A stretch of DNA of 25,733 nucleotides from a virus. Taxonomy: Duplodnaviria; Heunggongvirae; Uroviricota; Caudoviricetes. Below, piece after piece: positions 3,976 through 18,178 of the stretch; the stretch's first letter is position 1, and each line of letters begins with the position of its first letter. The DNA lies in IMG/VR virus record IMGVR_UViG_2585427772_000005, positions 1-25,733 of that record, one strand, 5' to 3'. The notes beneath the pieces were generated by a model, which saw nothing but the letters and a program-made list of their open reading frames with translations, was not told the DNA's origin and ran no database searches. Made by a program: the position numbers and the translations under genes.

Positions 3976-4179
3976 TTACGGCGCTGTTTTTAATCCTGCC
4001 GGGATTTCGTTATTGTCCATGTGAATAACTTTATCGACCGGATAACAGTTGCCGGGAATTTTCTGTTCCGCTGCGGCAGCCATGCATTCTTTCATTGAGT
4101 TGTACATGCCGGTGATTGCATCAAGCGACTCACCAGTATTGAGATGTACAGTCAGAATGAGTACGAATAATGTGTTCAT
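3976..4179 (-). CDS. Small exported protein of unknown function (prophage early-left accessory gene)
   Basis: The start ATG overlaps the stop of the upstream 62-aa ORF (ATGA), which argues for translational coupling and for ATG at 4179 rather than the GTG at 4185 used by the ORF track. The N-terminus is hydrophobic (NTLFVLILTV), consistent with a signal peptide or membrane anchor. Confidence 0.5.
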   Translation of the reverse strand: MNTLFVLILTVHLNTGESLDAITGMYNSMKECMAAAAEQKIPGNCYPVDKVIHMDNNEIPAGLKTAP

Positions 4180-4364
4180 CGCCACTCTCCGAAAATACCG
4201 AGTTTAAGAAGGGCAATTCTGGAGAGTATGGAATTGTCATTCAGCAGGTAGGGTTCATATTTTCTCATATTGATTGCATCCTCGGTGAAATCCCTGTTAC
4301 TGAGCAGAACACCAATATTAAAGCACCCGTCAGACGTATTAACGTTTGGTAGTGACGTTTCCAT
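4176..4364 (-). CDS. Hypothetical protein, 62 aa
   Basis: Co-directional with its neighbours. GAGGA lies 7 nt upstream of the ATG and overlaps the Rha stop codon; its own stop overlaps the next gene start. Confidence 0.5.
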   Translation of the reverse strand: METSLPNVNTSDGCFNIGVLLSNRDFTEDAINMRKYEPYLLNDNSILSRIALLKLGIFGEWR

Positions 4365-4374
4365 TATCGCGTCC

Positions 4375-4932
4375 TCAACAATGAATTTTTAGCAATTGCT
4401 CCACAGTCATATTTTTAATTGCGCTCCGGTTTACAAGAGTCCATCCTTGTTTCTCCAGATAAAACCGGAAGGTATCCAGGGTGCAGACCATTGCGCCGTC
4501 AGGAACGGTTTCAGTGAATTTGATATTGCCGTGTTCGTCGAGACGGATAACCAGGGTGCGTCCGTCCCCGTGAATCATTTTGTCGGGAGACGGGGCGTTA
4601 TTCTGGCGCAGTTCTGCTTCCATGCGGTCGAACTCAGCAATGTATGCCTCTTTAAATGCAGCGGCTTTTTTGCCAGTGAAGCCCATCACCAGGAAAACGA
4701 AGCCGTTTTTGGTGATTTGGTACATTGGGAGTTTGCGCCCGGTTGAGTCGGTGTATTCGCTCGACACAAAATTGTGCTCAGTGAATTTTGCTGAACAGTC
4801 CAGATTGCGAATTTTATCCAACACTCGTTCGTGGCGTTTGCCAAAGAACTCGGCGATCGCAACAGACGTAGTGACAGCGCGACCATTTTCGATGGTTACG
4901 TCAGGGTGAGAAAGGGTAAGGATAGTAGCCAT
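4375..4932 (-). CDS. Rha-family phage regulatory protein
   Basis: The ORF track extends this to 5229, but the internal ATG at 4932 is preceded by GGAGG at an 8-nt spacing, and the conserved Rha N-terminal pattern (AIAEFFGKRHERVLDKIRNL ... MYQITKNGFVFLVMGFTGKKAAAFKEAYIAEF) begins just after it. The upstream 99 codons look like a non-coding in-frame extension. Confidence 0.7.
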   Translation of the reverse strand: MATILTLSHPDVTIENGRAVTTSVAIAEFFGKRHERVLDKIRNLDCSAKFTEHNFVSSEYTDSTGRKLPMYQITKNGFVFLVMGFTGKKAAAFKEAYIAEFDRMEAELRQNNAPSPDKMIHGDGRTLVIRLDEHGNIKFTETVPDGAMVCTLDTFRFYLEKQGWTLVNRSAIKNMTVEQLLKIHC

Positions 4933-5775
4933 GATGGCAGCCTCCGCGATGAATTTGATTAACTCACCACCGAGGTTTTCCACGACCATAAGGGTGGTGA
5001 GACGTACAGGGGTGGAAATACCGGTCATCACGGAACCCGGCCAGCCTTGCGGCTGCCCTGCACGCCCCACCATAATGCGAATGTGGCTGTGCTTAACGCA
5101 TAAAAAAACCGCCTGAGCGCGGTTATGCGCCGTGAATGATTTCGGGTTTCCACGCCCGGCACCCGTTTTATGAGGTGCAGGTGCACTATAATTCCACCCG
5201 TTCTGGTTTTCAATAGCTACATTCAACATTTTCTCTACCTTTCATCACCGAAGTGAACTTTGTTGATGCGGTGCCTGGTGCCTCCAGGTGACGTTAACCA
5301 GTTAACAATTAACGTCGGATACAGAGCATTCCCGTTACGCCCGTAAAAGACCGCTTGTTTTAACTGTTCCGCGTGCGCTGAGCCGCATTCACCGCATCAC
5401 AAAATTCACTTTAAAAAGGGCGGCAGAGCAGTCACGGAGTAGAACTGATACCGCCAAAAGTCACCAGAAAATTGATAACAGAGGGCGTTGCAGCGGAGTT
5501 GTCACTTAAGCGTATGGTCAACCTGACAACCCGGTGTCCTCAACGGGGGAAGAAATACCCCCGCCATACTTACCGCCGCGCCATTTCGCGGATTGCCACA
5601 ACCGGAAGCGCACGATCGAATTAAATTTAACGACGACCTATACAGAGAGACTAACTTCTCCGGGCGCTTTCGTGTTATGCCCTGACTTTTCAGGGATATA
5701 TCCTTTTCAGTAAACTGTCAGTGCCGGATTCTTATCCGTGTCCGGCGCACGCACTCTACCTCACCTGTGAATAAA

Positions 5776-6150
5776 TTAATGATTAATTGATATTTTGTTG
5801 TTTGATTCAACTTTCCCATCGGATGTGTGATGCTTTAAATCACAGGAATTAATACTGCTCGCTGTAAAATGATTTTCAAGGGGAGCTATTCGAATCCCTT
5901 TCTTTTTCATTAACAAGCCAAATCCTTTATTAATGATGTCCATTAATTCCAGGAAGTATTTTTCATGTAAATCCTGGTTATCAGAGAGCTGCTTCTCTTC
6001 GTACAGACCGATAAAGGCACGACGCACGTTACCGGATATAGTATCGATGGTTTCTTTTTCTACGGTACTCAGGTCAAGAGTCGCCAGTTGAGAGCGAACC
6101 ACATTCGATGCCATTTCCTGGAATGGTACTGGTAAATCTTTAAATTCCAT
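5776..6150 (-). CDS. Hypothetical protein, about 124 aa (repressor-proximal accessory gene)
   Basis: GAGG lies 7 nt upstream of the internal ATG at 6150; the track start at 6162 lacks an SD. The 3' third of the gene is AT-rich. I recognise no family. Confidence 0.55.
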   Translation of the reverse strand: MEFKDLPVPFQEMASNVVRSQLATLDLSTVEKETIDTISGNVRRAFIGLYEEKQLSDNQDLHEKYFLELMDIINKGFGLLMKKKGIRIAPLENHFTASSINSCDLKHHTSDGKVESNNKISINH

Positions 6151-6161
6151 CGTCAACCTCA

Positions 6162-6314
6162 TCAGTCAGTGTTTCTGGTTAACCAGCGACGCGCGCCAGC
6201 TTCAGTTTTAAACGTTTTGCTTCTGGTATACGTCATCGCGGTAAACGTGCCGTCCTGGTTGGGAAACACGCCGTACACCAGAGATTCGTTGTTGCCAAGA
6301 TCGATAGTATCCAT
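6162..6314 (-). CDS. Small hypothetical protein, 50 aa (below the ORF-track size cutoff)
   Basis: ATG at 6314 with GAGG about 8 nt upstream. The translation MDTIDLGNNESLVYGVFPNQDGTFTAMTYTRSKTFKTEAGARRWLTRNTD has balanced composition. Its TGA stop overlaps the SD of the downstream gene. It sits where Rac-type prophages carry small ydaF/ydaG-like genes. Confidence 0.45.
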   Translation of the reverse strand: MDTIDLGNNESLVYGVFPNQDGTFTAMTYTRSKTFKTEAGARRWLTRNTD

Positions 6315-6519
6315 GCTGACCTCATTTCCCCTTAACGCCGGGTGGCGGAACTAAAACCTACAGCGCCGTGCTGTTCTTGATAGAAATATTAGTAACGCGG
6401 ATATTTTAAGTCAACAGTATGGCGTATGATATTTTTGATTTGGTAACTATGTAAATGTTTTTTCAAGGGAAAAATATTAGTTATACAGCTGATTTGCAGA
6501 AGTTATGGCACAAAAAAAC

Positions 6520-6567: not shown

Positions 6568-7029
6568 CTACTGGTTACGTTTCTTTAGTGCCAGCATGTT
6601 CTCGAAGGCTTCCTCGTAGAGCTTGTTTAGTCCACGTAGCTGGTTAAGGAGTTTGGCTTTTTCTGACGCAGGTAGAATCTCGAAGAGGTTAAGTAACTCT
6701 GCCTGTTCTTCATTGACCAGCCTCCATCCTTTGCCTGAAAAGTTATCATCATAAGTATCTGATGATCTTACATAATTCATTAAGTCTTTAAGGTCTTCTC
6801 GAATGTCCTCTGGTTTTACCTTTAACAGAGCCGCAAATTTTAGCGCAGCGTCGGTATTTACCGGTATCTTGCCGTTCAGATACTGGCTAACGGTGCCTTG
6901 AGATTCGAATCCCAACAACTCAGCCGCCAGCTCTTGAGTCAGCTTCAGCTCTTTTTTTCTTGCATTCCATGCGGCTTTTAAATTCTTGCTCGCTTCTGGA
7001 GTTGCAATCACTTCGCGTGTTTTTTTCAT
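6568..7029 (-). CDS. XRE-family HTH transcriptional repressor (CI/RacR-like prophage repressor, no S24 peptidase domain)
   Basis: 153-aa ORF with an N-terminal HTH (LTQELAAELLGFESQGTVSQYLNGK). It is transcribed divergently from a Cro-like gene across a 107-bp operator-bearing intergenic region. Confidence 0.75.
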   Translation of the reverse strand: MKKTREVIATPEASKNLKAAWNARKKELKLTQELAAELLGFESQGTVSQYLNGKIPVNTDAALKFAALLKVKPEDIREDLKDLMNYVRSSDTYDDNFSGKGWRLVNEEQAELLNLFEILPASEKAKLLNQLRGLNKLYEEAFENMLALKKRNQ

Positions 7030-9419: not shown

Positions 9420-10172
9420 ATGGAGACTGTTTTTGACGCACTGAAAGCGATGGGAAAAGCCACGTCGGTAGAGCTGGCTGCGCGACTTGATATCAGTCGT
9501 GAAGAAGTGCTGAACGAACTATGGGAACTGAAAAAGGCTGGTTTCGTTGATAAAAGCGCGTACACCTGGCGTGTGGCTGATAACAACGTTCAGCAGGAAC
9601 AGCCAGCGCAGGCAGAACTGCCGGAAGAAACCACCACAGCAACAGTAGCGAAAATCTCAGAGTGCGATTTAACCGCAACGATTGAACAACGCGGACCACA
9701 AACGGCGGATGAACTGGCTACGTTTTTCGGCATCACATCACGCAAAGTGGCTTCAACGCTGGCAATGGCAATCAGTAAAGGTCGTCTGATTCGCGTTAAT
9801 CAGAACGGTAAATTTCGTTACTGCATGCCGGGCGATAATTTACCAGCAGAGCCGAAAGCTGCATCGGTAGCGGAAACTGATGGTAAAGCCTTTCCTCAGC
9901 CAGCCGGTGTTGCGTTACCAGTACTGGAAGCTGCAACACAGGAAGATATTAAAACCGAAACTGTGGCGGACATTGTGCAGTCGTTGCCATCGTTTACTGA
10001 AACGCAAGCGGATAACCTGATTTTACCATCGCTGCATATAGCAAATCGTGAACTGCGTCGGGCGAAAAGTCATGTCCAGAAGTGGGAACGAGTCTGCACC
10101 GCGCTGCGGGAGCTGAACAAGCACCGGGATATTCTTCGGGATATTACCGCGACCGGAGAGCTGCAGCGGTGA
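9420..10172 (+). CDS. Prophage protein with an N-terminal winged-helix-like domain (DUF1627-like)
   Basis: 250-aa ORF with GGAGG 7 nt upstream. The N-terminus ([29 protein letters not shown]) looks like a winged-helix DNA-binding domain. Conserved hypothetical of E. coli lambdoid prophages, from memory. Confidence 0.6.
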
Positions 10173-10486
10173 GTGGCTGGAAGAAGTGGTACGAGGCTGA
10201 AATCATGATACTCCGGCAGTGTGCGGGAACGATGACGGTCGAAAGCATTGGGAGGCTGACCGGTCGTACAGGTGATGCTGTCAGAACGAAAGCGCGGGAA
10301 CTGGGTGTCAGCCTGATGTTACGGGGTGATTATCACCAGTCAACAAAATATCCGCAGAGTGATATTGAACTGGCGCGACAGCTGCATCAGCGTGGCGTAC
10401 CCAGGAGAGAAATCGCCAGAAAATTTGGAATGCCGTTGCGCACAGTGAATAACTACGTTTATTTCGACAGGAGAGTTCAGGAGTGA
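10169..10486 (+). CDS. Small HTH DNA-binding protein
   Basis: GTG start overlapping the upstream stop (GTGA); the track start at 10082 lies inside the upstream gene. C-terminal HTH pattern ([21 protein letters not shown]). Confidence 0.5.
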
Positions 10487-10779
10487 GGGTGAGAGTTTAT
10501 ATTGCCGGTCCAATGACCGGGTATAAAAATTTCAACCGTGAGGCGTTCCACAAGGCGGAAGAGGAACTGAAACGGGAAGGGCATACAGTCTTGAACCCGG
10601 CAGTACTTCCGGATGGGCTGACACAGCCGCACTACATGGATATTTGCATGGCAATGATTCGTTGTGTGGATGCGATTTACATGCTGAAAGGCTGGCAGCG
10701 GTCAGCAGGTGCTAAGGCAGAACTGGCGCTGGCGGAGAAACTGGGGCATGCAGTTATTTTCCAGGAGGAGGTACAGTGA
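10483..10779 (+). CDS. DUF4406-like protein (nucleoside 2-deoxyribosyltransferase-like fold)
   Basis: 98-aa ORF with CAGGAG upstream. The N-terminal motif VYIAGPMTG is typical of this family. Confidence 0.7.
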   Translation: MRVRVYIAGPMTGYKNFNREAFHKAEEELKREGHTVLNPAVLPDGLTQPHYMDICMAMIRCVDAIYMLKGWQRSAGAKAELALAEKLGHAVIFQEEVQ

Positions 10780-11051
10780 ATATCGACGCAACAATGACGA
10801 TTGGTACGGCCCTCAATACGGGGTTGGCGCTTCTTGGTTGGTGCTACATCATGTTCTGCTCATGGCGGTGGCTGTCACTGATGTTACTGAAAGAATGGAA
10901 TAAACGCTGTAAACAGACGCAGCGGCAGAAGGCAATGAATGCGTTTTTTGAGACCTTCGATATTGACAGTATAGAACCAGGAGAGCCAGCTCGCGTGATT
11001 AGCAGAGGTGACGTTGTAATTCTTGTATACCGGAGTGAAGAGAAAGCATAA
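10776..11051 (+). CDS. Hypothetical small membrane protein
   Basis: GTG start overlapping the upstream stop with GGAGG upstream. One predicted transmembrane segment (LALLGWCYIMFCSWRWLSLMLL). Confidence 0.45.
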   Translation: MNIDATMTIGTALNTGLALLGWCYIMFCSWRWLSLMLLKEWNKRCKQTQRQKAMNAFFETFDIDSIEPGEPARVISRGDVVILVYRSEEKA

Positions 11052-11156
11052 TCCAAATCTGAATAATTAAATCCAGCACTGTAAATAAAATTTAATCCTT
11101 AACCGGAGGGATTTCTGCACCCTCAGAACATCAGGAGGCCGCCTGAAAGGGCGGTA

Positions 11157-11579
11157 ATGAAAATGACTGAATTAACAAAAGAACAATTAATCGAAGAAGC
11201 CAAATTAAAAATAGCGATTACGAAATGCCACCCCAATTCAGGGATGGCGCGAGTAGAGGGCGAGTTATTCAAAATTGCACTGGCATCGCTGGAAGCAGAG
11301 CCGATAGCGTGGCGATATCGCTACGTGAAAAAAGGTGTTATGGACTCTCAGGGGGAGTTGTGGGTTGGTGACTGGAAATATGTACCGAAAAAAGAGGATT
11401 GTAACGACAGGCCGAACTATGAAATTCAGGCCTTATTCACTGCCCCACCAGTCCCGGTTACATCAGAAGAACTGGTTAAAGCTGTGCACTTTTATGAACA
11501 ACTAAAACGCGAAAATCCACCAGCATCCGGCAACCAGATTAATGGGTTAACTATGCCGGTTAAACGACCAGCCGACTGA
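11157..11579 (+). CDS. Hypothetical protein, 140 aa
   Basis: AAGGG about 7 nt upstream of the ATG; protein-like composition. I recognise no family. Confidence 0.55.
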   Translation: MKMTELTKEQLIEEAKLKIAITKCHPNSGMARVEGELFKIALASLEAEPIAWRYRYVKKGVMDSQGELWVGDWKYVPKKEDCNDRPNYEIQALFTAPPVPVTSEELVKAVHFYEQLKRENPPASGNQINGLTMPVKRPAD

Positions 11580-11970: not shown

Positions 11971-12229
11971 ATACAGCGAACGCTATTGGTTTAGTTGGAT
12001 ATTTACTGTGCCGGACAAAAACGGTTTGCAGGGAAATCTTAGTTAAGTAGAATGACTGTGGGTGCTTGAGGCTATCTGTCTCAGGCATGAACACCAAAAG
12101 GCAGATAGAGAAAAGCCCCAGTTAACATTACGCGTCCTGCAAGACGCTTAACATTAATCTGAGGCCATATCTATGCTCTACACACGTAGGTTAGCCTCTT
12201 ACGTGCCGAAAGGCAAGGAGAAGCAGGCT

Positions 12230-12385
12230 ATGAAGCAGCAAAAGGCGATGCTAATCGCCCTGATCGTCATCTGTTTAACCGTCATAGTGACGGCACTGGT
12301 AACGAGGAAAGACCTCTGCGAGGTACGAATCCGAACCGGCCAGACGGAGGTCGCTGTCTTCACAGCTTACGAACCTGAGGAGTAA
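12230..12385 (+). CDS. hok: Hok/Gef-family type I toxin (HokD/RelF-like, 51 aa)
   Basis: The translation MKQQKAMLIALIVICLTVIVTALVTRKDLCEVRIRTGQTEVAVFTAYEPEE has the Hok-family hydrophobic helix and conserved LC-E-R core, and matches the chromosomal HokD/RelF sequence as I recall it. The track ORF starting at 12173 is an in-frame upstream extension. A strong terminator follows. Confidence 0.8.
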   Translation: MKQQKAMLIALIVICLTVIVTALVTRKDLCEVRIRTGQTEVAVFTAYEPEE

Positions 12386-17036: not shown

Positions 17037-17112
17037 GGCCCTTTAGCTCAGTGGTGAGAGCGAGCGACTCATAATCGCCAGGTCGCTGGTTCAAATCCAG
17101 CAAGGGCCACCA
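17037..17112 (+). tRNA. tRNA with CAU anticodon, most likely tRNA-Ile2 (lysidine-modified, reads AUA)
   Basis: Cloverleaf read by hand: acceptor GGCCCTT/AAGGGCC, D-arm GCTC..GAGC, anticodon loop CTCATAA, T-arm GCTGG-TTCAAAT-CCAGC, encoded CCA. Closely resembles E. coli tRNA-Ile2 as recalled. Confidence 0.85.
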
Positions 17113-17212: not shown

Positions 17213-17289
17213 GCGTTGTTAGCTCAGCCGGACAGAGCAATTGCCTTCTAAGCAATCGGTCACTGGTTCGAATCCAGTACAGCGCGCCA
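17213..17289 (+). tRNA. tRNA-Arg (anticodon UCU, reads AGA/AGG)
   Basis: Cloverleaf: acceptor GCGTTGT/ACAGCGC with one G-U pair, anticodon stem ATTGC/GCAAT, loop CTTCTAA, T-arm ACTGG-TTCGAAT-CCAGT, encoded CCA. Confidence 0.9.
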
Positions 17290-17753: not shown

Positions 17754-18144
17754 ATACATATCTGGATTATCACCGGTTACGGTAAAAAGTGATTGCTTAC
17801 TGTTTTTGTGAATGGCATTGCAGCAGCCGGATAATGTCAGTGCTGGCTGACGGTGTGCTGGTGGCGGGGGTGGTGGTTGCTGCTTTCCCGTTGCTGAAAA
17901 AGAAAACGCCAGACTGTTAGCCGGGTATCAGTTAGCGGGAGAAATTTTTAAATACTTCACAATTCAGGCGGTTGACTGTTGTCTGGTTTGCGGGGAGTTT
18001 GTTAAAAGAAACTGGCATGGTGAATCCCCCTGTGCGGAGGGGCAATCAGCGAGTAGGTATATGGGATAATCGCGGATTCAGGTGCTGGTACTGAATTCAC
18101 CGGGAGGCACCCGGCACCATGCAATGGCACATAGCGCCACTCTC

Positions 18145-18178
18145 CAGCCCCTCTCCGGAGGGGCTGTTTATATTGATT
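18145..18178 (+). terminator. Strong rho-independent terminator
   Basis: 9-bp perfect GC-rich stem CAGCCCCTC / GAGGGGCTG with loop TCCG, followed by TTTATATTGATTTT. It lies 23 nt beyond the 3' end of the minus-strand ORF 18201..18536. Confidence 0.65.

Follow-up and report, generated by a model that had tools for sequence, protein, structure and literature searches.

DicF is a cell-division-blocking prophage RNA that has been under study since 1989. The published species are a 53-nt form, delimited by RNase E cleavage and by the terminator, and a 190-nt form whose 5' end is generated by RNase III (PMC10448788, PMC5069750, PMC9438474); in K-12, the 5' end of the 190-nt precursor is RNase III-dependent (PMC10448788). 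A 72-nt form arises when RNase III cuts at the 3' end of read-through RNA (PMC5069750, PMC9438474), and K-12 DicF is known to terminate at its own intrinsic terminator (PMC10448788, PMC9438474). The second closely related system is the antirepressor switch of P1/P7 (immI) and of Gifsy-1 (isrK-orf45-anrP), in which a promoter is followed by an a1-bearing leader or isrK with its terminator, then by C4, a2 and the antirepressor (PMC4825925); in Gifsy-1 the isrK terminator is leaky, and the C4-like/orf45 region and the antirepressor follow it (PMC4825925).

The window analysed here is the whole 25,733-nt stretch of a caudoviral record (IMGVR_UViG_2585427772_000005), in which the original prediction had singled out an unusually long non-coding gap at 5230-5775. 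The gap is real: it contains no ORF of at least 60 aa on either strand, and the longest ORFs on the operon sense (minus) strand are of 29-33 aa. In a 99.8%-identical genome, RefSeq likewise ends the 124-aa gene at 5776 and starts the 'Rha' gene at 5229, with no feature in between. The gap is very probably not empty, and holds the DicF sRNA cassette of a Qin-like (dicBF-type) early-left operon, encoded, like all the operon features located below, on the minus strand. Judged by sequence comparison, the actual signal in the gap is homology, 5254-5770 appearing as a single conserved module. Of the possibilities that had been raised for the gap, a small RNA has been found (DicF, at 5418-5470) and so has a termination site (the DicF intrinsic terminator), whereas neither an antitermination site nor a deleted gene finds support. 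The strand, the RNA family and the role of the repeats in processing had not been named, and the annotated Rha start had been accepted.

The surroundings of the gap are those of the dicBF operon. A DicA-like HTH repressor (6568-7029, assigned by Pfam) is followed by the ydfA-like DUF1391 gene (6162..6314), identified by Pfam and by the K-12 layout as first of the operon, near which a promoter scan places promoter-like sites at 6455..6426 and 6414..6386. Next comes the hypothetical 124-aa gene (5776..6150), which has no Pfam match, takes the place of ydfB/ydfC and bounds the gap on its upper side; beyond the gap lie dicB (4176..4364), the cell-division inhibitor that serves as synteny marker of the operon (Pfam DicB, 111.7 bits; also annotated by RefSeq), and a DUF1482 gene, all on one strand. 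DicF is thus located as in other dicBF-type operons (repressor, ydfA-like gene, dicF, dicB), with an extra module between dicF and dicB. The stretch 5254-5770 is collinear with the K-12 Qin ydfC-dicF-dicB spacer at about 90% identity over 517 bp, and aligned with both that spacer and phage Tritos, in which DicF is annotated, it shows 86% mean column identity. This locus shares with K-12 Qin its place in the operon, the leader, the RNase III helix, the RNase E region and the terminator, as well as the structured spacer that follows. Sequence identity to K-12 and Tritos is complete or almost so in the RNase E region, in the terminator and in the 3' arm of the RNase III helix. Two things differ: the gene upstream of the cassette is here the 124-aa ORF, which is unrelated to K-12 ydfB/ydfC, and the isrK/C4/antirepressor module lying between the cassette and dicB is absent from K-12 Qin.

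A search against sRNA family models, which the original prediction had proposed, recovers DicF directly. Rfam RF00039 matches 5418-5469 over model positions 1-52 of 52 with 71.5 bits (cut-off 48; E=3.6e-14), which places the 53-nt DicF sRNA at 5418..5470 with its 5' end at 5470. This copy aligns with annotated K-12 dicF and with the misc_RNA of Tritos, and 51 of its 53 nucleotides are identical to K-12 DicF, the two substitutions being G12U and U29C. Its intrinsic terminator (5413..5455), consisting of a stem GGCGGUAUCAG...CUGCUCUGCCGCC and then U5 at 5413-5417, is paired both in the structure line of the Rfam alignment and in the fold, and matches the K-12 sequence save for one loop base. DicF by itself is no more stable in its fold than shuffled sequences (z = -1.5). 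In the pairing expected of the 3' half of DicF with the ftsZ ribosome-binding region, the core complementarity is kept and one A-U pair is lost through U29C; the full-length DicF-ftsZ RNAduplex energy is -36.9 kcal/mol as against -38.5 kcal/mol for K-12, figures that do not discriminate, shuffled sRNAs averaging -32 to -33. The finding of DicF is genuine but ordinary: the cassette is well known and this is one more un-annotated copy of it. The sole less-charted part of the cassette is the structured element just downstream of DicF, here called X.

Upstream of DicF, the 3' UTR of the 124-aa gene provides the untranslated leader of the DicF precursor (5471..5775), which from about 5770 downwards runs collinear with the spacer between K-12 ydfC and dicF. 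A promoter scan of the gap revealed no sigma-70-like promoter on the minus strand, and an internal promoter is absent from the K-12 spacer too, as published (PMC10448788). The whole leader folds just marginally better than shuffles (z = -2.0). Its predicted fold includes the two inverted repeats that had drawn attention to the region, CCCTGA-CTTT-TCAGGG at 5680-5695 and GGGGG-AAGAAATA-CCCCC at 5545-5562, both of which can be read directly at these positions and are partly kept in K-12, with 4 bp each. It also contains an imperfect long helix at 5595..5680 (arms 5664-5680 and 5595-5613, with two small hairpins enclosed), a predicted RNase III site, which is seen in MFE and centroid folds and as an inverted repeat, and whose 3' arm is identical in sequence to K-12. 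Counting 190 nt from the DicF 3' end reaches this 3' arm, and the precursor 5' end is predicted to lie at about 5607. The RNase E site is placed at ~5470/5471, where the AU-rich UUAUCAAU meets UUUCUGG, and would be processed as in K-12 (PMC10448788). All cleavage positions were transferred from K-12 by alignment, and species sized on gels are uncertain by a few nucleotides; with this margin, both published RNase III positions map inside helices predicted for this locus. Some 28 nt upstream of DicF lies a further hairpin, GUUGUCA-AGGUUGACCAUACGCUUAAG-UGACAAC (5498..5530), which is invariant among DicF loci and is carried by the annotated 'dicF-like region' of P1 and P7 with a compensatory change from U-A to C-G.

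Some phage records have automatic 'hypothetical protein' calls under the match, as might be expected if the gap were the decayed remnant of a gene still intact in related prophages, another of the readings offered originally together with the proposal to compare syntenic prophages. That comparison speaks against it: the spacers of K-12 Qin and of phage Tritos are collinear with the gap and hold no intact gene, the curated records of both showing an equivalent, geneless spacer of 340 nt. No conserved or consistently open frame is present among 28 distinct leaders (minimum stop-free run 19-39 codons), the gap is ~90% conserved with known RNA signals throughout, and in RefSeq nearly all genomes have no feature under the match. 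A deleted gene is, on this evidence, scarcely credible, and the gap is better read as a DicF cassette. The cassette, at a coverage of at least 80%, is present in 4066 of 5426 complete E. coli genomes (75%), often in several copies, while the form with the isrK/C4/antirepressor insertion occurs in just 315 of them. It is common and yet left unannotated by RefSeq/PGAP in nearly every E. coli genome, which is why readers keep flagging a mysterious gap.

Beyond the cassette, the sequence 4933-5215 holds the parts of the P1/P7 and Gifsy-1 switches in the same order. A sigma-70-like promoter, TTGAAA-17-TATAGT (5185..5213; promoter scan, 10/12 matches), has its -35 and -10 positions conserved in eight diverged homologs. 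About 7 nt past it begins an isrK-type sRNA (5102..5178; Rfam RF01394, 67.7 bits, cut-off 50), which ends in an intrinsic terminator (5107-5124 plus U7) detected by a terminator scan and showing compensatory stem changes. The loop of the second isrK hairpin carries the C4 target site a1 (5147-5154), which co-varies with C4. The C4-type antisense RNA follows at 4990..5077 (Rfam RF01695, 81.9 bits, cut-off 45), with co-varying stems and its recognition motif at 5012-5019; the target site a2 (GUGGAAA, 4977..4984), part of the three-way covariation, precedes the antirepressor start codon by ~45 nt. When compared by longest exact complements, the C4 motif is in four specificities a 7-nt exact complement of its own a1 and a2, cross-matches being of at most 5 nt; the specificity heptamers thus co-vary, as P1/P7-type heteroimmunity predicts. 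Promoter, isrK, C4 and antirepressor together form an antirepressor switch of the P1 immI/Gifsy-1 type, in which read-through of the isrK terminator may be expected by analogy with Gifsy-1. It differs from P1, P7 and Gifsy-1 in that neither icd nor orf45 forms a cistron of its own, the AUG equivalent to that of orf45 lying within C4 and in frame with the antirepressor; in that the antirepressor is of Rha type; and in its location inside a lambdoid early-left operon, directly behind DicF and X.

The start of the antirepressor bears on the extent of the gap. According to the RefSeq model, a 284-aa Rha protein begins at 5229 with a genuine 'Ash' N-terminal domain, and the gap ends at 5230. A Pfam Phage_ASH match at aa 14-109 (E=2e-16) accords with this, the frame is stop-free for ~100 codons upstream of ATG 4932 in 8/8 homologs when the other frames have 0-5 stops, and Gifsy-1 translates an ORF of 45 codons that overlaps its C4-like RNA (PMC4825925). 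Within the same 284-aa ORF, however, lie two RNAs scoring above Rfam thresholds as well as a promoter and a strong intrinsic terminator, and the module has its own transcription start downstream of ATG 5229, a codon that two of the eight homologs lack. Substitutions over the three codon positions are 43/28/69 from ATG 4932 on, where a third-position bias first sets in, as against a flat 60/67/61 upstream of it, unlike a coding sequence; upstream of 4932, stems also show compensatory changes, and covariation ties the C4 motif to two target sites. ATG 4932 is preceded at 8 nt by a GGAGG Shine-Dalgarno sequence, and the Pfam Phage_pRha match covers aa 120-204 of the 284-aa ORF. Taken together, these observations leave the annotated model improbable. 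The antirepressor most likely begins at 4932 and not at 5229 (CDS 4375..4932), the lower boundary of the gap at 5230 is probably wrong, and the non-coding stretch most likely reaches 4933. To regard the upstream extension as a plain artefact was considered and set aside, the frame being open in all eight homologs; because of this, and of the Gifsy-1 precedent, the claim is lowered to RNA-constrained sequence, possibly with a translated orf45-like part, and an in-frame AUG within C4 (5071-5073) may give an orf45-like extension. As it stands, the 284-aa 'Rha' model, together with the Pfam 'Ash' domain that it triggers, covers a promoter, a terminator and two genuine RNAs.

Between the DicF terminator and this module lies X, a structured element of 163 nt (5250..5412) recognised by its fold and by covariation. 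It is closed by the 22-bp helix P1 (5390-5411/5251-5273), one arm of which directly follows the DicF U-run and the other directly precedes the next module, and it encloses helices P2 (5371-5386), P3 (5317-5370, variable), P4 (5290-5316) and P5 (5274-5288). The MFE is -68.5 kcal/mol (z = -6.7), with none of 200 shuffles as stable, and the G-U pairs show that it is the minus strand that folds. In an alignment fitted to the model, and therefore favouring structure, 96% of cells are paired as against 76% when shuffled, 18 of 26 pairs have changed on both sides, and the covariation score is 0.50 compared with 0.03-0.10 for slid controls. P4 includes the tandem GTTAAC motifs pointed out originally, which are indeed present at 5293-5298 and 5301-5306. 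As a meaningful repeated motif GTTAAC was rejected: it occurs nine times in the window when 5.5 are expected, a number reached by 12 of 100 shuffles, and is thus not enriched. The two adjacent copies are part of one hairpin, contained in a perfect 8-bp inverted repeat (5290-5297/5309-5316), which is maintained in other phages through compensatory changes and co-varies strongly across 95 distinct copies. The covariation of X and P4 was assessed in an alignment anchored on the 3' arm and in a CM-based alignment; MAFFT/RNAalifold did not recover the GTTAAC hairpin, its 5' arms having been aligned in different registers.

By sequence and model comparison X, itself without annotation, is related to the STnc100/PasD sRNA family and has no terminator of its own. 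It matches Rfam STnc100 (RF02076) over model positions 22-154 of 206 with 35.6 bits (E=1.5e-5), below the gathering score of 47, the terminator portion of the model remaining unmatched. Conversely, a model built from X-type copies only (R1) matches STnc100-type copies full-length at 40-65 bits, including the window's own STnc100 copy at 18003-18133 (51.9 bits). Both groups are built alike, with a closing helix, then GGUGAAU leading into hairpin 1, a variable middle and, after it, a co-varying hairpin and the invariant CACCNGGAGGCACCNGGCACC hairpin; joint covariation of the two groups is seen in an alignment fitted to the model. They differ in hairpin 1, which is GCGGCU.AGCGCACGC in X and CCCCC...GGGG in STnc100; in location, copies of X lying in early or ban operons and STnc100 downstream of Q in the late region; and at their 3' ends, where STnc100-type copies have a terminator and X has none, no T-run being found within 120 nt downstream in DicF-type copies. 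A closing helix of at least 20 bp is present in all 24 DicF-linked copies and in none of 56 STnc100-type copies (median 8 bp). Since the core domain also exists without the long helix, the latter looks like an add-on to an older element.

An antitermination site had been among the suggestions for the gap, and X could in principle be a factor-independent processive antiterminator resembling put, promoting read-through of downstream terminators in an operon lacking N. No N homolog is found among the operon's identified genes, X sits in long early operons and here upstream of the isrK terminator, and its invariant blocks could, from their context, be a binding surface. HK022 putL and putR resemble X in being cis-encoded structured RNAs of N-less lambdoid early operons; they differ in size, in position relative to terminators and in family behaviour, and have no sequence or model similarity to it. 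HK022 26000-36000, which spans the putL and putR region, gave no motif, nhmmer or covariance-model match to X, and for this reason homology to put is rejected. X is moreover twice the size of put, an RNA of ~70 nt with two stems (PMC9378689); it comes after and not before the DicF terminator; and its STnc100-type relatives run straight into efficient terminators, the opposite of what an antiterminator would predict. Such a function is highly improbable.

The following course of events is proposed, by homology with K-12 as far as the 72-nt species. Transcription would begin upstream of the ydfA-like gene, at the promoter under repressor control, and proceed through the 124-aa gene into the 300-nt leader, where an RNase III cut of the imperfect helix 5664-5680/5595-5613 would yield the ~190-nt precursor. 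RNase E would then cut at ~5470 to give mature 53-nt DicF, ending at its own terminator with the U-run 5413-5417, and DicF with Hfq would act in trans on ftsZ, xylR, pykA and manX, leading to a division block and metabolic rewiring. Read-through past the DicF terminator would transcribe the 163-nt X, and RNase III acting in the 22-bp closing helix would produce 72-nt DicF, the published cut falling by analogy at 5399/5398, in the 5' arm of P1. The same cut would sever the downstream message and should free a structured core of ~135 nt. Next downstream, where dicB might directly follow, comes the inserted P1-immI/Gifsy-1-type switch with its own promoter (isrK, C4 and the Rha-type antirepressor), and then dicB. 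The present analysis shows the family assignments, the collinearity with K-12, the folds and X's covariation; for maturation through RNase E and RNase III cleavage, it is site sequence and structure that are seen to be conserved at this locus, and the processing would follow that known from K-12 (PMC10448788, PMC5069750).

A role in RNase III processing accounts for the long closing helix of X, yet not for the conserved multi-hairpin core. Lambda early transcripts (N leader, sib) also contain long intramolecular RNase III helices in polycistronic RNA, which, when cut, divide functional RNAs from each other and decide what becomes of the flanking messages; on this general comparison, the helix of X differs in enclosing a conserved multi-hairpin domain. 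It is possible, if rather doubtful, that the ~135-nt core, once excised by RNase III, is a stable regulatory RNA, a sister without terminator of the Hfq-associated STnc100/PasD sRNAs, acting in trans or in cis on the next gene, which would be compatible with the identification of the gap as a DicF cassette. In favour of such a role, X and STnc100 match each other significantly in both directions, copies that otherwise diverge all keep the blocks GGUGAAU and CACCNGGAGGCACCNGGCACC unchanged, and the core co-varies and is kept without DicF or the long helix in P1, P7, Klebsiella, Pantoea and Buttiauxella; X also usually stops 20-40 nt short of the start codon of a small gene directed at the host (such as dicB or terB/tciA). 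Against such a role, X scores under the Rfam gathering score and lacks the terminator and U-tail of its own that form the usual Hfq module, literature searches turned up no transcript of the dicF-dicB spacer, and X has no known target or seed.

A two-RNA cassette may tentatively be suggested, in which X represents a terminator-less branch of STnc100/PasD across Enterobacterales phages (lambdoid, P1/P7, Klebsiella, Pantoea), regulating the small host-directed gene that comes next or acting in trans; with equal reserve, the DicF-linked copies might be released by RNase III cutting the added 22-bp helix. X has strong covariation support and ties the dicF-dicB spacer to the STnc100/PasD sRNA family, and if its core does more than serve RNase III, then the classic dicBF operon has an overlooked component.

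Between positions 5230 and 5775 an ORF scan detected no reading frame of 60 or more amino acids on either strand, and on the minus strand, on which all the neighbouring genes also lie, the longest ORFs span 29–33 amino acids. The RefSeq annotation of E. coli EcPF7 (99.8% identical) shows the same gap with no feature inside it, flanked on the minus strand by a 124-aa hypothetical gene ending at 5776 and a 'Rha family' gene of 284 aa whose annotated start is 5229. The ORF-poor gap of the original prediction is therefore real, and the motifs named within it (the GTTAAC pair and the inverted repeats at 5545–5562 and 5680–5695) are all present. The small RNA and the termination site suggested for the gap were likewise found: a search against the Rfam family models, with assignments judged by the curated thresholds, returned a full-length DicF sRNA at 5418–5469 (-) (71.5 bits, cut-off 48, E=3.6e-14), together with its terminator. 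The surroundings are those of a dicBF-type early-left operon, with an HTH repressor gene (6568–7029), a ydfA-like DUF1391 gene (6162–6314), dicB downstream of the gap (4176–4364; Pfam 111.7 bits), and a DUF1482 gene further downstream.

Comparison with syntenic prophages revealed the same layout in Qin of E. coli K-12, where the spacers of 340 bp (ydfC–dicF) and 174 bp (dicF–dicB) are also non-coding. The stretch 5254–5770 (-) is collinear with the K-12 spacer and with phage Tritos, in which DicF is annotated, with a mean column identity of 86% and long identical runs. Similarity begins directly after the stop codon of the unrelated upstream gene and stops at the position of the K-12 dicB start, limits which define this 517-bp cassette as a mosaic unit; phage matches to a larger query split exactly at the cassette boundary. 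At least 80% of the cassette is present in 4066 of 5426 complete E. coli genomes (about 75%), in a median of two and a maximum of ten copies per carrying genome, and in nearly all of them PGAP places no RefSeq feature under the match, the exception being K-12 MG1655.

The DicF copy differs from that of K-12 by G12U and U29C, a minority variant (29 copies collected). Its 3' half, the part that pairs with the ftsZ ribosome-binding site (PMC5069750), still has its core complementarity, with one A-U pair fewer; the duplex energy is -36.9 kcal/mol, versus -38.5 kcal/mol for K-12, from a calculation that fails to separate real from shuffled RNAs. In the viral record L067 a DicF-like RNA near the DicF position (minus strand; index 7878, reverse complement) still has UUUCUGGUGA, the 5' seed, and also the upstream hairpin. 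Its terminator hairpin differs, being short and devoid of the ftsZ-pairing region, and the RNA is possibly a DicF variant acting on fewer targets.

DicF of K-12 is not transcribed from its own promoter but is cut from the operon transcript, which starts at dicBp; RNase III generates the 5' terminus of a 190-nt species, RNase E that of the 53-nt sRNA, and both RNAs end at the DicF terminator (PMC10448788). By homology, the same maturation would operate in this prophage. Within the gap, the promoter scan of the sense strand gave no sigma-70-like site, and in the alignment the sequence of K-12 is kept in the AU-rich RNase E region and in the terminator. The position 190 nt back from the DicF 3' end, at about 5607, falls within an imperfect helix (5664–5680/5595–5613), in its 3' arm; the helix is predicted by the MFE fold as well as by the centroid fold and is also found as an inverted repeat. 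The leader is marginally more stable than its shuffles (z = -2.0), and the small hairpins at 5545–5562 and 5680–5695 form part of its fold and are only partly conserved. Just upstream of DicF, at 5498–5530 (-), lies a 33-nt hairpin that does not vary among DicF loci; its conserved loop, AGGUUGACCAUACGCUUAAG, is 19 nt long. The annotated 'dicF-like region' of phages P1 and P7 has a counterpart of the hairpin with one compensatory change, and has this hairpin and a terminator in common with DicF loci while lacking the DicF body; no function for the hairpin was found described in the literature. A remnant of a deleted gene, also proposed for the gap, is unlikely, since no reading frame is consistently open among 28 distinct leaders.

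Immediately beyond the DicF U-run, a stretch of 163 nt (5250–5412 (-), here called X) folds at -68.5 kcal/mol (z = -6.7), with none of 200 shuffles as stable. The predicted minus-strand fold comprises a 22-bp closing helix P1 (5390–5411/5251–5273), a small hairpin P2, a variable arm P3, and hairpins P4 (5290–5316) and P5 (5274–5288). P4 is what had been noted as 'tandem GTTAAC': the adjacent pair exists, as part of a perfect 8-bp inverted repeat (5290–5297/5309–5316), but the motif is not enriched in the window (9 occurrences versus 5.5 expected). In two reviews citing Faubladier 1990 (PMC5069750, PMC9438474), a 72-nt DicF is attributed to RNase III processing of read-through dicBF RNA. Adding 19 nt to the 53-nt end leads to 5399/5398, in the middle of the P1 5' arm, so P1 is most likely the RNase III site that yields 72-nt DicF. 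Cleavage there would free a core of about 135 nt and would make the 5' end of the downstream message.

The Rfam STnc100 model matches X below threshold (35.6 bits versus 47, E=1.5e-5). The same prophage holds a structural relative of X in its late region, a full STnc100 copy at 17986–18175 (+) (132.4 bits), downstream of two tRNA genes (17037–17109, 17213–17286). A search of the viral collection with a pattern of two blocks common to X and this copy found at least 119 viral stretches (80 among the matches listed), with at least 89 distinct cores of two types. STnc100-type cores are usually followed by a T-run, and are arrayed in tandem, three or four at a time, in the viral records L017 (2315–3362), L032 (362–999), L051 (1715–2352) and L029 (254–694). 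X-type cores (GGUGAAU-GCGGCU.AGCGCACGCGG...) have no T-run after them, whereas the Hfq-associated sRNAs STnc100 and PasD carry terminators of their own (bioRxiv 10.64898/2026.05.13.724894). Many X-type copies have no DicF upstream; they are found also in Klebsiella phages, in Citrobacter, Raoultella, Lelliottia, Buttiauxella, Pantoea and Mixta genomes, and in the ban operons of P1 and P7, just upstream of tciA/terB. In the P1 record (1212–1313 and 2488–2632) and in that of P7 (2488–2628), the order in this C1-controlled operon is 'dicF-like' hairpin and terminator, tRNA genes, and X-type element, and neither record annotates X. A small host-directed gene, for example dicB or terB, typically begins 20–40 nt beyond the end of X.

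A covariance model derived from 42 X-type copies matched STnc100-type copies over their full length at 40–65 bits, including window positions 18003–18133 at 51.9 bits. In an alignment of 95 distinct sequences, whose fitting to the model favours the structure, 96% of cells are paired versus 76% in shuffles, 18 of 26 pairs show changes in both partners, and covariation scores 0.50 versus 0.17 for shuffles and 0.03–0.10 for slid partners. An anchored analysis of P4, independent of model fitting, found all seven pairs kept across at least eight unrelated arm sequences, and the abundance of G-U pairs fixes the folded strand of X. A long closing helix (at least 20 bp) is present in 24/24 DicF-linked, 11/47 other X-type and 0/56 STnc100-type copies, and is specific to one lineage. 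From the kinship with STnc100, the copies without DicF, the covariation and this lineage-specific helix, we read X as an apparently older conserved RNA domain, sister to STnc100/PasD, to which the RNase III helix would have been added in the DicF lineage. The X core is an un-annotated STnc100/PasD relative with strong covariation; the literature searched yielded no description of an RNA from the dicF–dicB spacer. An antitermination site had also been suggested for the gap; the X covariance model had no match in HK022, and a put-like antiterminator role for X found no support in this comparison (PMC9378689).

Beyond the lower boundary of the gap lie isrK (5102–5178 (-); Rfam 67.7 bits), which ends with a strong terminator, and a C4 antisense RNA (4990–5077 (-); 81.9 bits), with a good promoter upstream at 5213..5185 (-) in the promoter scan. 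Promoter, isrK, terminator and C4 all fall within codons 1–99 of the 'Rha' ORF, annotated as 284 aa long, in which Pfam recognises 'Ash' (Phage_ASH, PF10554) at aa 14–109 and Rha at aa 120–204. Among eight homologs of 67–100% identity, the isrK terminator and the C4 stems show compensatory substitutions. The single-stranded C4 motif at 5012–5019 matches over 7 nt both a1, in the isrK loop (5147–5154 (-)), and a2 (4977–4984 (-)), about 45 nt upstream of ATG 4932; such matching recurs in four specificities across the homologs, with cross-matches of at most 5 nt. The logic is the same as in the immI antirepressor control module of P1 and P7. DicF, X and immI occur fused in 315 of 5426 genomes, and S. 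flexneri and Citrobacter have the same arrangement. At 9642–11211 of the viral record L099, an isrK/C4/antirepressor-like module is repeated three times in tandem at a spacing of about 655 bp, with the 7-nt C4 specificities TTGGAAC, TTGGCGT and TTCGCAG, each with its own matching a1 and a2; judged by sequence, this array would amount to a set of heteroimmune antirepressor switches. In the window itself, an Rfam match to sok antitoxin RNA at 12060–12235 (+) (117.1 bits) indicates a putative hok/sok-type toxin-antitoxin locus.

Substitutions by codon position are flat upstream of ATG 4932 (60/67/61), versus a third-position bias in the coding sequence (43/28/69), and the upstream frame is stop-free in all eight homologs. 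These observations can be reconciled through Gifsy-1 orf45, a translated reading frame coupled to the antirepressor and overlapping a processed C4-like RNA (PMC4825925); the equivalent AUG here, 5071–5073, is in frame with the antirepressor. Given the flat substitution pattern, the 'Ash' similarity looks like translated conserved RNA, part of it possibly translated in the manner of orf45. The annotated start, 5229, precedes the promoter of the module itself and is missing in two of the eight homologs; it is therefore considered an annotation artefact, and the antirepressor likely starts at ATG 4932. The non-coding stretch is accordingly most likely about 843 bp (4933–5775) rather than the gap alone, and carries three known RNAs and X. 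DicF and its processing flanks are already known and ubiquitous; the residual interest lies in the conserved core of X and in the mis-modelled antirepressor start.
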